From Anaerovoracaceae bacterium (GTDB taxonomy: Bacteria > Bacillota > Clostridia > Christensenellales > Borkfalkiaceae), in NCBI GenBank assembly GCA_963599785.1, contig CAVBZJ010000001.1, positions 17,701-66,175 on the forward strand: a stretch of 48,475 nucleotides of DNA, given 5' to 3'. Below are positions 14,024 through 24,305 of this stretch, piece after piece. The notes below the pieces were generated by a model. The model searched no databases and was not told the DNA's origin. It was given only the letters and a program-made list of their open reading frames with translations. The translations under genes and the position numbers were made by a program. Position 1 is the first letter of the stretch, and the number at the start of each line of letters is the position of its first letter.

Positions 14024-17000
14024 TTATTCTATTACGAACGAATAGAGAGTGTGTCCGTGCGCGGGCTGCTGCGCGTTTTTCACCTCTACGAGAGAAACGG
14101 TATACCCCGAAAGATCGTAGGTATAAGCGTTTTCGCCCGCCTGCGCAAAGAAATACGCCGCCGTGGTGGTCCGCACCGTCTCGGTAATTCCGAACGAGGA
14201 AAAGTCCGCTTCTCCTATCGCCCCGCCCGCGGTCGGCTCTATCTTCCATATATAAACGTCTCCGCCCCGTCTTCTGTCAACGAGACCGTCTTTCAGCCCC
14301 GAGTGAGAAACGGCGAGCGTTCCCGTGCCGTTTTTCTTCACCGTATAAATATCCGCTTTATAAAGAGTGAAATCCTTTTGCGGCGCGGCGTAGCTTTCGA
14401 GCGGCTTATCCGCCGCGTCGGTTTTTTCCGCCGCCGAGCCGTAGTTCTTTTTATCGAACGCGAATTTATAAGCGTTCACAGAAACGCTCGCTTTAAGACC
14501 GCTTTCCGTTATCCCGAACCCGTCCGTGTTTATCGGAAGAGTTACGACGAGAATAAATTCCTCCGCCGTCGCGCCCGCACGCACCTCGTCCGTGATCGCG
14601 CTTCCGTCTTTTAACGAGGCAAAGGCGGAAATCGGAATTTCCGAAGTCTTTTCCGAAAGAACGTACCCGCCCGACCAGACCGTGACCGAATTTTTACGGT
14701 AAAAAAGTCTTAAAGAGGTGTTTTCGGGGAGCTTTATTTCTCCGAAATCGAAGGTAATCGCGCCCGTTTCGTCGTTTTCGCCGTAGTTCACGTTGTAAAC
14801 CGCGGTAAACTCTCCGTCCGAATACAGCTCGGTTTCCTCGTGCCGCACCGCGTCGCCCGTGTAAAATTCCAAGGAATCCGCGTATACGACGAGGTATATA
14901 TACCCCGAATCGTACGCGCCGAGTGATTCCGCGGAAATTTCGTAAGAATATTTTTCCGCGCCGTCCGTAAATTCCGCGGTTATATCCGCGTACGTTCCGT
15001 CCGAAAGTCTTACGAACGCGTTAAACCTCGGCTCGCCTTTCCAACTATCCGAAACGCTTATAGAAAATCCGAACCCGTTCTTATCGTCCGCGGGAACTAT
15101 ATAGCCGTCTTGAAGAGAGGTCGCGGGGAAAGAGGATTTAACCTCCGCTCCCTCCGGAGCTTCCACCGAAACGTTATACGTCCAGCGCGCGTAGAAACGA
15201 AGCGAGCCGTTGACTATCGCCGAAGAATCTTCTTTCAGCTCCTCGAAAGACTTGCCGTAAGCCGCCAGCTCGGTCGCGCTTAAAACCTGATAAAAGCCCA
15301 CGAAATCGAAGCCGTACCGAGAAGCCGCAACCGATTTTATCCACTCGTTCAGCCCTTCTATATCGAGAGAAGCGTAAGTCGCGTCCGCGGGAACTATCGT
15401 TTTGAAAAAGTCGTACGAGCCGAAGTTCGTCAAAAACACGAGCGAATAGGTTTTCGCGTAGGTAACGCATATGGTAACGCCGTCGCCGTTTATTTCGGTA
15501 ACGAGCTTTTCGGGCAGAACGAAGTCGTAAGAATAGCTCAAATACGCGTTCGCTTTTGCGGAAATAACGTATTTAACCCCTTTATAAACCGCTTCCACGG
15601 TATCGTCCTTCCACGTTCCGTTCACCGTCGTTTCGCCTATTTTAAGGCTCAGCGCGGGTTTTAGCCCGTACCCCGGTTGTGCGGAGGAAGTAAACCCGAA
15701 AGAGCTGTCCTCTATCATTTTTCTGTCCGAAGAAACGTCCGCGCCCGAAAGCTCGAAGTCGAAACGCGTTTCGTCCTTAACTTCAAGCACTACGGTATCC
15801 GAAACGTTTTTGCCGAGGACGGTGCAGGTAACGACGTAATCGTTATAACTCGAAAGCACTACCGTACCGTTCGTCGCAACGTTCGTGCCGCTGTAACTCG
15901 TTTCTACTATATAAGAACGCTTCGTCTGATATTTGTACTCTATTTTTTCGGAAAATCTGACCGTATCGCCCTTGACGTAAACGTAATGCCGATAGCCGTC
16001 CTCCGCAATGTAAGAATATATCGGCGGCGTTCCCTCGTCGGGGGTTATCGTAAGACTCGTTATTTCGTTCGGAACGAATTCCGCTATAACGCCGTGGGTT
16101 ATTCCGCCGTATATGAATTCCATAACGATTATTGTCGGCTCTTTAAGGGTTGCGGTGCTTTGTATGCGGCAAACGTTCTGAACCCCGTCCGTTCCCTCTG
16201 CCGTTATCGTCGCCCTGCCGTTAAAGGTGGAAATCTGCGCTACCGAAGAAGGCTTTGCCGCGATAATCGCAAGCGCGCGTTCCGAATCGCTCATCGAGGA
16301 ATCCGCCGCGAGCGAAACGTCGTACAACACGGCTTTCACGGGGAAATAGTTCATTCCCTGAGGAAGCACTCTTATAAAATCGACGGTTTTTTCGTTGCCC
16401 GCTTCGTGACGGAAATAAACGTAATTCGCGCTCGTTCCCTTATGAACGACGGCGTAACCGTCGGTGTTCTCCGAGGTAAGCTCCTTGCCGTCCTCGCCCG
16501 TCACTTTAAGAGAGAAATTTTGCGCGGCGGGATTTTCCACCGTCACGGGATAAGAGCAAAGCCTGTATTCCTTTCCGCCGACTGTCGCATATACGCTTAT
16601 ATAAGCCACTCCCGCGGAAACGCCCGTCACCTTAACGCCGTTTGCGTCCGTCGTCACCGAAGCGATTTTTTCGTCGCTGCTTTTTACCGAAATAATCGAG
16701 TCCGCGCTCGTGATTTCGGGATACGCGGTAAAGCTTTCGCCCTTCGATATGCTTTTCGCGTTCTCGCCGTAAGAAACGAGATGTAAAGCCGCGCCGCTCG
16801 TAAGTCCCGAATAGTTAGAAGCGTTTCTGTAAACGAGATCCGTTCCCGCATTCTCCGAAACGTCGTAATTTTCGGTCATAGAAATATTGCCGTTCGGCTT
16901 ACCAGATGGCGGGTGACCTATACCGCCCGTCCACGAGCCTTTTCCGCCCGAAGCGTGAACGGTTGCGTCCGAAACGTTCTTCCTGACCGTCCATCCTTCC

Positions 17001-23525: not shown

Positions 23526-24305
23526 TTATTCCGCAACCTGCTCTACTCTTACGTTAAGAGTGAACTTGATAGAGGTAACGACGTCGCCGAAATCATATCC
23601 TTCCACAGTCGTTCCGTTTGCTTTCTGACCGAGAAGGGTATCGAGTTCGTCGCAAGTGAAGCCGTCGAAAGTTTCCGTTCCTTCAAACGCCCACGCCCAG
23701 GAAAGGGTGTAAGTGGTTTCAGTTATGGTTACGCCCGCTTCGTAAGTAGTGTTCATCGTATCGGTTGCAAGAGCTTGTTTAACGTCTGCAAGCGTCTTTC
23801 CGTCAACAACGGTAGCGTCGCCCTTTTTAAGAGTCCATTTTACGGGGTTATATTTTGCGGTTTTTGTTTCGGTCTGCTCTCCGTTTTTAACTTCCTTCGA
23901 TACGTTAAGAACTACGTCGTTTGTGTAATCAAAGTCAATTACGACTTTCGCTTTAACTTCCGCCGTGCCGCCGACCGTAAAGGTCATAGAACCGGTCGTT
24001 CCGGGAGCTACGAGGTTTCTGTTCGCGCTGTCCGCTTTAACGGTAAGTCCGTTGTCTGCGGTGGTTATCTTGCTGTAATCTGCCTTAGCGGAGTTTTCAT
24101 ACTTCTCGCCGAAGATTTCGGAAGAATTTACGCTTACGGTGTAACCCCATTTAGCTACCTGCGCTTCGCCCGCGCCGTTGCCGCTCGTAACGTACTTGGA
24201 GAAGGTGTACCCTCCGAAGCACAAAAGTGCGATTAACGCAAGCAATAATGCTACGATAACCACGGTTTTCTTGTTGCTGTTCCTTTCGGATTTTTGTTGT
24301 GTCAT
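23526..24305 (-). CDS. Secreted TasA/BsaA-like protein (259 aa). It is the first gene of the operon and the putative major fibre subunit.
   Basis: The RBS is GGAGG, 9 nt before the ATG. The signal VVIVALLLALIALLCFGGYTFSKYVTS resembles the GGGTFAYFSD type of SipW-cognate signals. The mature part contains NLVAPGTTGSMTFTVGGTAEV and YTLSWAWAFEG, and the protein ends in IKFTLNVRVEQVAE. Confidence 0.6.
   Translation of the reverse strand: MTQQKSERNSNKKTVVIVALLLALIALLCFGGYTFSKYVTSGNGAGEAQVAKWGYTVSVNSSEIFGEKYENSAKADYSKITTADNGLTVKADSANRNLVAPGTTGSMTFTVGGTAEVKAKVVIDFDYTNDVVLNVSKEVKNGEQTETKTAKYNPVKWTLKKGDATVVDGKTLADVKQALATDTMNTTYEAGVTITETTYTLSWAWAFEGTETFDGFTCDELDTLLGQKANGTTVEGYDFGDVVTSIKFTLNVRVEQVAE

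Follow-up and report, generated by a model that had tools for sequence, protein, structure and literature searches.

A SipW-encoding operon of uncultured gut Clostridia that is apparently controlled by c-di-GMP and may build a surface fibre or scaffold

Introduction

In the tapA-sipW-tasA operon of Bacillus subtilis and the sipW-tasA-bc1280(capP)-calY operon of B. cereus, a signal peptidase of the endoplasmic reticulum (ER)/archaeal type is encoded among its presumed substrates, and both operons are linked to biofilm formation and adhesion. The fibres of TasA and BsaA are assembled by donor-strand exchange after processing by SipW (PMC9674648; PMC11580942). In Clostridium perfringens the operon sipW-bsaA-bsaB-bsaC encodes, along with SipW, several exported paralogs, among them BsaA, which polymerises by donor-strand exchange. 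Their large partner in this operon is BsaC, a vWA protein (PMC7395162, PMC11580942). According to a 2025 preprint, operons with multiple TasA/BsaA paralogs are common and are clustered with signal peptidases and with adhesin-like partners, the partners being LPXTG, sortase, SpaA or fibronectin-type proteins (PMC11580942). Here we describe an operon of related logic in an uncultured gut Clostridium (Anaerovoracaceae bacterium, assembly GCA_963599785.1), located in a stretch of 48,475 nucleotides (nt) of contig CAVBZJ010000001.1 (positions 17,701 to 66,175) that we refer to as the window. The operon consists of six genes, g1 to g6 in the order of transcription, all of which are on the minus strand.

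A second group of relevant systems is defined by regulation, as cyclic di-GMP (c-di-GMP) riboswitches control adhesin and pilus genes in Firmicutes, including pilA1 and CD2831 of C. difficile and a collagen adhesin gene of B. thuringiensis. The operon described here resembles these systems in having a GEMM-type aptamer and a terminator in the leader of a putative adhesion operon with diguanylate cyclase or phosphodiesterase genes nearby, whereas the known switches act on sortase-anchored adhesins or on type IV pili. In a full-text literature search we found no paper in which a c-di-GMP riboswitch is paired with SipW. A paper on a TANB77 "pilin" was considered as a match and rejected, as it describes a Tad-type pilus that is unrelated to the operon.

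As in the Bacillus operons, the g1-g6 operon encodes an ER/archaeal-type peptidase among its presumed substrates, and it is probably linked, as they are, to adhesion. Further similarities to tapA-sipW-tasA are β-rich substrates of about 250 amino acids (aa), a signal that ends in a T/S-aromatic-A/S site and an accessory protein that may anchor or nucleate the structure (TapA there, g2 here). The differences are that the new proteins have no detectable sequence or profile similarity to TasA and CalY, that g2, unlike TapA, is truly paralogous to the main subunit and contains a cytoplasmic domain, and that the operon has a 1993-aa passenger, an apparent c-di-GMP riboswitch rather than SinR/SlrR control and hosts that are uncultured gut Clostridia. 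The C. perfringens operon is similar in that it is clostridial and combines SipW with several exported proteins and a large partner, but the BsaA family model (TIGR04090) matches no protein here, and none of the LPXTG, sortase, SpaA or fibronectin-type partners of BsaA/TasA operons is present. Our preferred reading, for which belief and doubt are about equally weighted, is that the operon encodes a c-di-GMP-induced, SipW-processed surface fibre or scaffold with a swappable adhesin, similar to the TasA/BsaA systems in its logic but built from new protein families.

Results

The g3 peptidase and a shared export signal

With 67.8 bits, the g3 product exceeds the cut-off of 51.85 set for TIGR02228, the model of archaeal/ER-type signal peptidase I, and falls below that for the B. 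subtilis SipW equivalog (NF046067; 62.2 bits against a cut-off of 190), and its closest plasmid-borne relatives are signal peptidases I of haloarchaea. Judged by its sequence, g3 is a SipW-like archaeal/ER-type signal peptidase I and not the ortholog of B. subtilis SipW, and the TIGR02228 score bears out the identification of a SipW-type peptidase in the first-pass annotation, a reading made earlier from the letters of this DNA. The protein has one membrane segment at each end (residues 23-51 and 159-187). Residues S74 (in PSMSG), H112 (VTHRI) and D133 (KGDANPSED) are kept in at least 93% of 31 homologs; based on published SipW mutagenesis, we take these three to be the catalytic residues, so that g3 would have Ser/His and a conserved Asp in place of the bacterial Ser-Lys dyad.

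Each of the five non-peptidase products has a single hydrophobic segment, which is N-terminal in g1 (signal core at residues 10-36), g4, g5 and g6, and is situated at residues 89-118 in g2. In the orthologs of g1, g4, g5 and g6, as well as in o4 and o5, two proteins of sister cassettes described below, this segment ends in a conserved site composed of a small-hydrophobic-small triad followed by Lys or Arg and by a residue that is either aromatic or hydrophobic ([ST]-[FVY]-[SA]/[KR]-[YFM], where the slash marks the presumed point of cleavage; individual sites in Table 1). The exception to this pattern is g6, which has Ala, Ser or Thr where the others have Lys or Arg. The earlier proposal that all five products begin with a common, unusual N-terminal export signal stood in large part, since the motifs quoted for it are present and conserved, but it did not extend to g2, which lacks the shared cleavage motif and has ATC/VSDRD in its place. 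Profile matches among the signal-bearing families are limited to the N-terminal 30-50 residues.

The residues at positions -3 to -1 of the site (T/S-hydrophobic-A/S, the hydrophobic residue being aromatic in TasA and CalY) also occur in the TasA (TWA/A) and CalY (TYA/Y) controls. The SipW-cognate signal model, TIGR04088 (cut-off 19 bits), recognized TasA (41.5 bits) and a plasmid CalY-like protein (49.4 bits), but matched nothing at E≤10 among the N-terminal 62-mers of g1, g4, g5, g6, o4, o5 and a g4 ortholog, as the flanks around the triad differ. The earlier assignment of these N-termini to the SipW-cognate signal class is not upheld by this result. We propose instead that the shared site represents a private signal class for the co-encoded peptidase, with both cleavage and its position being predicted.

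A candidate c-di-GMP riboswitch in the operon leader

The leader of the operon is about 450 nt long and contains a riboswitch candidate that the first-pass annotation had missed. The candidate aptamer is of the c-di-GMP-I type (clan CL00126) and has an insertion of about 70 nt in its second hairpin. An invariant 37-nt aptamer core, the pattern of which was derived from related loci scoring as RF01051, is present once in the window (zero occurrences are expected by chance) and once each upstream of g1 in 30 of 53 loci. Six related loci have an RF01051 match at the same position (gathering threshold 35), with scores of 51.5-56.8 bits for L026, L027, L029, L035 and L036 and 35.8 bits for L030, and compensatory changes are apparent by eye in the first aptamer hairpin. 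In L043 and L044, no match to a c-di-GMP riboswitch reached the gathering threshold. The label RF03167 (GGC variant) of the window aptamer was discarded; we attribute it to the insertion, given that the core is identical to that of the RF01051-scoring orthologs.

The aptamer is followed by a leader terminator that would serve as the expression platform. The sequence GGUUGCAAUAU serves both as the 5' arm of this terminator and as the 3' strand of the aptamer, the two elements overlapping by 11 nt. Because one strand has both roles, the ligand-bound aptamer should prevent termination, and based on this overlap we interpret the element as a probable c-di-GMP ON switch, under whose control the operon apparently stands. 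In three of the related loci (L026 3079-3330, L027 458-680 and L029 362-590) the riboswitch terminator is followed by a tandem copy of the aptamer's 3' half (GCGCCCGGTTGCAAT) together with a second terminator hairpin, in what looks like a duplicated expression platform.

The gene directly downstream of the operon encodes a GGDEF-REC-HD-GYP protein and belongs to a signalling block with genes for a family-3 solute-binding protein and a hybrid histidine kinase (Table 1). The same block is found after the cassette in L002-L004, L007, L008, L019, L030 and L031, and in L002-L004 the kinase gene is followed by an Hpt gene. The GGDEF/HD-GYP protein could make or break c-di-GMP, and the block is probably a signalling input to the riboswitch.

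Organization of the operon

The six genes, the promoter at 24784 and the terminator that had been noted earlier are all present, with open reading frame (ORF) coordinates exactly as first given (Table 1). The intergenic gaps from g1 to g6 are, in order, 105, 11, 116, 136 and 14 nt. Based on the consensus promoter, the terminator at the operon end and the lack of any convincing minus-strand terminator between the six genes, it is plausible that g1-g6 form one transcription unit.

A GC-rich hairpin without a U-tail is situated between g1 and g2, and hairpins of differing sequence occur at the same position in L002, L005, L008, L016, L019, L026 and L038. This hairpin is possibly an mRNA stabiliser or attenuator that raises the stoichiometry of g1, which would fit the higher expression of a major subunit.

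Outside the peptidase g3, no operon product matches a Pfam or NCBIfam model above its cut-off. No operon product has an LPXTG-like motif near its C-terminus or a C-terminal hydrophobic segment, and a Pfam scan of 16 ORFs, which left the ORFs at 1-5109 and 33590-48106 outside its range, found no sortase. From its sequence, the operon would accordingly encode neither a sortase pilus nor an LPXTG adhesin, as the sorting signal, C-terminal membrane segment and sortase gene of such systems were not found.

Table 1. Features of the operon and its surroundings in the window, with sister-cassette proteins and, where a locus is named, positions in that locus. A slash marks the presumed point of cleavage.
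Feature	Position	Strand	Description
g1	23526-24305	(-)	259 aa; site GGYTFS/KYV
g2	22641-23420	(-)	259 aa
g3	22030-22629	(-)	199 aa
g4	21155-21913	(-)	252 aa; site SGVSFA/KMY (window) or GGTVTFA/RFY across orthologs
g5	20020-21018	(-)	332 aa; site AGVSVS/RFV (window), CVSVS/KFV across orthologs
g6	14024-20005	(-)	1993 aa; site TSYS/ATV (window), KTYS/A across orthologs
Sigma-70-type promoter	24755-24784	(-)	TTGACA-18 nt-TATAAT; 12/12 consensus matches
c-di-GMP-I-type aptamer (candidate)	24546-24694	(-)	clan CL00126, 33.3 bits, E 5.2e-6
Invariant 37-nt aptamer core	24649-24685	(-)
Leader terminator (putative expression platform)	24508-24556	(-)	hairpin + U7; forms in minimum-free-energy fold; z-score -4.4
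GC-rich hairpin after g1	23440-23498	(-)	free energy about -50 kcal/mol, z-score -7.6; no U-tail
Intrinsic terminator, operon end	13974-14017	(-)	hairpin + U7; free energy -16.8 kcal/mol, z-score -2.9
GGDEF-REC-HD-GYP gene	11951-13882	(-)	directly downstream of operon
Family-3 solute-binding protein gene	11118-11930	(-)	signalling block
Hybrid histidine kinase gene	8956-11121	(-)	signalling block
o4 (sister cassettes)			178 aa; site SGVSFA/KNL
o5 (sister cassettes)			about 430-770 aa; site SVTFTMS/KYV
o5 example, L002	12938-14389		BspA-type
o5 example, L005	12919-14214		BspA-type
o5 example, L018	11403-13706		BspA-type
o5 example, L030	3639-5891		BspA-type

Modular cassettes in related genomes

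A scan of GTDB species genomes with g1 identified 39 loci, nearly all in uncultured gut Clostridia (Hadza, HGM, CAG:727, CAG:448, Oscillospiraceae and Christensenellaceae), and the loci were assigned to cassette types by mapping their ORFs onto the window proteins. The exact six-gene order (type A) is present in at least eight other metagenome-assembled genomes (MAGs) of gut Clostridia (L026, L027, L029, L032, L036, L038, L039 and L041), where the identity of g6 is 30-47%. Conservation of the gene order in relatives, whose absence had been named beforehand as grounds for rejecting the first reading of the operon, was therefore found. The view of the first-pass annotation that the architecture is potentially new held in that the families, signal and regulation differ from those of described systems, although the operon type itself is common in gut MAGs and multi-paralog operons have already been reported.

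In type B cassettes (L002-L008, L016, L019, L020 and L030) g1, g2 and sipW are followed by o4 and o5 rather than by g4, g5 and g6. Satellite cassettes (L015, L018, L021 and L023-L025) consist of g1, o4 and o5 without g2 or sipW and often occur in genomes that have a full cassette elsewhere, which fits a split into machinery and substrates. Another arrangement was seen in L040, L042, L043 and L044, from Christensenellaceae and goat-caecum MAGs, which have a pair of g1-like genes and a g2-like gene enclosed between two SipW genes (sipW-g1-g2-like-g1-sipW).

The o5 proteins are BspA-type leucine-rich repeat (LRR)/DUF285 proteins (E 7e-73 to 2e-152) with widely varying repeat numbers, and they share the private N-terminal signal of g1. 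The BspA-type LRR family is known for adhesins. Three loci (L002-L004) are syntenic with the window downstream of the operon, where they have the same GGDEF gene, yet their cassettes are of type B, which implies that the distal module has been swapped in place. Based on these comparisons, we consider g1, g2 and SipW to be the conserved core of the system, and g5 with g6, or o5, its putative cargo.

The g1 and g2 paralogs

The g1 family is very large, with 804 clusters at 90% identity; at E≤1e-3, a total of 3,482 representatives were obtained. It has no Pfam model, a cluster look-up gave no names, and a tblastn search of plasmids with g1 gave no match. The AlphaFold model of g1, made with an 80-sequence alignment, has a predicted local distance difference test (pLDDT) score of 71, and residues 100-259, at 75-94, are predicted to form a confident β-sandwich. 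Among the most conserved parts of g1 in a 112-sequence alignment are residues 31-40 (0.68) and 51-60 (0.67), blocks that include the motif A-x-V-A-K-W-G. In the monomer model the same blocks have pLDDT values of 38 and 51, respectively, and the segment at residues 37-60 is unmodelled. A conserved segment that follows the processing site and is disordered in the monomer would, by analogy, correspond to the pattern of the donor strands of TasA and BsaA (PMC11580942). A comparable stretch (A-Q-V-A/S-x-hydrophobic) occurs in g4 and o4. Because g1 is the first gene, is followed by a potentially stabilising hairpin and belongs to a huge family, we read its product as an abundant building block and the putative major structural subunit.

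The similarity of g2 to g1 extends over the membrane segment and the ectodomain (hhalign probability 99.1%, E 1.7e-18). In g2, the membrane segment is preceded by a cytoplasmic N-terminal domain of 88 residues, and because of this domain and the lack of the shared site the protein probably stays in the membrane, where it could be an anchor, base or nucleator. The four small proteins had been described as paralogs; this is accurate for g1 and g2, which are related over their mature domains, but not for g4 and g5, which resemble g1 only in the first 30-50 residues.

Relationship of the small proteins to TasA, camelysin and BsaA

The small proteins had initially been assigned to the TasA/camelysin/BsaA group. 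Searches of g1, g2, g4 and g5 against Pfam and NCBIfam gave no TasA, camelysin, BsaA, TapA or SipW-signal match. For a wider test with TasA-type hidden Markov models (HMMs), we scanned the six operon proteins, 80 close and 112 distant g1 relatives and 10 divergent relatives from Christensenellaceae, and none of the approximately 200 family members matched PF12389, NF046066, TIGR04088, TIGR04089 or TIGR04090, whereas TasA controls matched strongly. A faint trace was seen with the TapA model, which three g1 relatives touch at E 0.0033.

Profile comparisons were made against a TasA/CalY profile of nine Bacillus sequences (one from the PDB and eight plasmid genes), which is shallow and does not include clostridial BsaA. 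The hhalign probabilities were 0.2-0.5% for g1, 2.3% for g2 and at most 0.1% for o4, g5 and o5. For g4 the value was 19.6% (E 0.0012 over 87 columns), a result that has to be read in light of the shallow profile, and comparison with TasA alone was not significant. When the PDB was searched with the sequences of g1, g2, g5 and g6 and with the g1, g4 and g6 profiles, no meaningful match was obtained.

The fold searches, which covered the AlphaFold models of g1 and g4, gave nothing at E≤1e-3 and no template modelling (TM) score above 0.30. For g1, the TasA fibre structure 8aur_A was at rank 23 (E 0.027, probability 0.69, TM 0.26/0.29). For g4, the best E value was 6e-3 and the matches were ConA-type lectins, CBM27 and Eph ligand-binding domains, with TasA outside the top 50. 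The models thus place g1 and g4 as predicted β-sandwiches in the broad structural class of TasA, but membership in the TasA/camelysin/BsaA family is without support from HMMs, profiles or folds.

It could nonetheless be argued that the small proteins are true but very divergent members of that family and that the operon is an expanded form of tapA-sipW-tasA or sipW-bsaA, particularly as the BsaA family is so divergent that only iterative HMMs connect its members (PMC11580942). Consistent with kinship are the adjoining sipW gene, the T/S-aromatic-A/S triad, the g4 profile match, the contact of three g1 relatives with the TapA model and the fact that 8aur has the top Foldseek probability among the g1 matches listed. 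The three shorter of the small proteins also contain an L-x-P...F-x-V strand and ...EQ ends, as had been reported earlier and as is conserved in their orthologs, and the P-G/E-D...F-x-V strand and C-terminal A/V-E-Q resemble LKPGD...FQF and FEATQ of TasA. However, PG...F.V motifs are common in many β-sandwich domains, and the failure of every TasA-type model on family members when the controls succeed, the very low profile probabilities of g1 and g2 and the insignificant fold matches all argue against kinship. We therefore regard this explanation as unlikely; remote homology to TasA would in any case be compatible with the same fibre mechanism.

The distal proteins g4, g5 and g6

Although two homolog searches gave only eight usable relatives of g4, its AlphaFold model is confident (pLDDT 83, predicted TM score 0.81), and it indicates an exported jelly-roll β-sandwich protein. 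It is related to the smaller o4 over about 120 columns (88.8%), and g4 and o4 may be adaptors. The exported protein g5 always co-occurs with g6.

The lectin-like character of the best g4 fold matches is of relevance to a different explanation, in which there is no fibre and the operon encodes separate surface or secreted proteins, a giant adhesin and lectin-like accessories, each of which would either stay tethered through its N-terminal membrane segment or be freed from it, with SipW as a dedicated signal or shedding peptidase. Such an arrangement would also agree with the single hydrophobic segment per product, there being no other anchor, and with the appearance of g2 as a permanently membrane-anchored form of g1. 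It leaves unexplained, however, the extreme conservation of the g1 segment after the cleavage site that is disordered in the monomer model, the first-gene position and hairpin that are typical of major subunits, and the fact that g1 is strictly co-inherited with distal genes that themselves change. For these reasons we consider it quite unlikely that no fibre or scaffold is formed.

The giant g6 protein has the signal, then about 95 residues, and then 16 xGGxxG motifs at residues 288-1000, spaced by 32-77 residues. These regular motifs had been described as GLUG repeats, a sensible guess from the motif, but Pfam Glug (PF07581) was matched below its threshold in only one 400-aa fragment out of six g6 pieces (10.9 bits, E 0.7; cut-off 20.5), and the full-length protein and eight orthologs gave no match. 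A Big_2-like stretch at residues ~1038-1095 was similarly below cut-off (19.5 bits against 22.8). No Pfam family matched full-length g6 at E≤0.01, and the sole match below 0.01 in the eight orthologs was to Wzz (E 0.0077), which is probably due to the N-terminal membrane segment. The stretch GFDFVGFY...RFYARWTYNV at residues ~1560-1612 is invariant across orthologs and resembles the Listeria-Bacteroides repeat (Flg_new), for which no HMM match was obtained. The orthologs are conserved along the whole length of the protein, at 32-48% identity. When each small-protein family was compared with g6 by hhalign, nothing was shared beyond the signal.

As was first noted, g6 lacks both an LPXTG motif and a C-terminal anchor to the wall or membrane. 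The accompanying idea that g6 is a displayed adhesin is favoured by the sister cassettes, whose corresponding distal slot is taken by a BspA-type LRR protein that bears this private signal at its N-terminus. Nevertheless, g6 differs from these proteins in having no LRR or DUF285 signal and in being three to four times larger, and its proposed role as an adhesin is an analogy with the occupants of that slot.

A role in glycan foraging would be an alternative to adhesion, with g6 a secreted β-helix carbohydrate-active enzyme or binder and the small jelly-rolls its carbohydrate-binding partners. The xGGxxG periodicity is suggestive of a β-helix, lectins and carbohydrate-binding modules (CBMs) are among the weak matches of the g1 and g4 models, and glycosidase genes are found nearby (alpha-L-fucosidase in the window, GH3 and GH20 in L002-L004). 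These fold matches are all insignificant, however, no CAZy-type Pfam domain was found in g6 or its orthologs, and the flanking glycosidases are not kept with the cassette, as for example in L005. Since both the apparent c-di-GMP control and the BspA-type LRR protein in the equivalent slot also point to adhesion, we view foraging as highly improbable.

Other genes in the window

Upstream of the operon, an ORF at 26226-28283 (-) encodes a 685-aa protein without a Pfam match. A lipobox-like Cys stands at the end of its N-terminal hydrophobic segment, and the protein contains many repeats of a C-x(n)-C-x-x-C-G...GH module. Three additional minus-strand ORFs, at 5268-7382 (704 aa), 29461-31005 (514 aa) and 31044-33386 (780 aa), matched no Pfam family at E≤1e-5.

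Discussion

In the mechanism that we propose, transcription would begin at the consensus promoter, and binding of c-di-GMP to the GEMM-I aptamer would be required for it to pass the leader terminator. The five non-peptidase products would then insert in the membrane, each by its one hydrophobic segment, and the SipW-type peptidase would cut g1, g4, g5 and g6 at the shared site. The abundant subunit g1 would form a fibre or scaffold, with the freed, conserved N-terminus of each g1 most likely inserting into the β-sandwich of the following subunit in the manner of TasA and BsaA; we have less confidence in this strand exchange than in the structure as such. The paralog g2, which lacks the cleavage motif and has a cytoplasmic domain, would remain in the membrane as the base or nucleator, and g4, g5 and g6 would be a swappable distal module docked on the structure, with g6 as the adhesive head.

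Several observations weigh against this mechanism. There is no sequence, profile or fold tie of g1, g2, g4 or g5 to TasA or BsaA, and the fold matches are to generic β-sandwiches (lectins, CBMs and cupins). The proposed strand exchange is drawn by analogy rather than from an oligomer model, and the hydrophobic segments, for which we predict cleavage, may instead be kept as anchors. Comparison of the N-terminal 170 residues by hhalign found no docking module common to g5, o5 and g6 beyond the signal. Lastly, the window aptamer scores below the Rfam gathering threshold, because of its ~70-nt insertion.

With regard to novelty, the features that set this operon apart are protein families that are invisible to existing models, a signal class of their own, a paralog that is probably rooted in the membrane, a passenger of about 2,000 residues without an anchor, interchangeable putative adhesins and apparent riboswitch control. 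It is conceivable, and we suggest it tentatively as a doubtful possibility, that such operons represent an undescribed class of Gram-positive surface fibre, with a subunit family of ~3,500 clusters, a private signal, a paralog as root, swappable adhesins and a c-di-GMP riboswitch. The subunit of such a class would have no model in Pfam or NCBIfam and no detectable relationship to TasA, the adhesin would be either a β-helix-like giant of 2,000 residues or a BspA-type LRR protein, and the class would be widespread among the uncultured Clostridia of the human gut.

The attachment of gut commensals to mucus, to food particles and to each other is determined by their surface fibres and adhesins. 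To our knowledge, no surface fibres or adhesins are known for most uncultured Clostridia, and the operon type described here is common in MAGs from the human gut, Hadza and HGM genomes among them. The proposed circuit would lead from a sensor kinase through the GGDEF/HD-GYP regulator and c-di-GMP to the riboswitch, and from there to a SipW-processed structure with swappable adhesins. If g1 polymerises, the principle of the SipW-dependent fibre would extend beyond the recognisable TasA/BsaA family, and there would also be a new class of signal peptide for bacterial ER-type signal peptidases. The operon may thereby be an entry point to the surface biology of the uncultured gut Clostridia.

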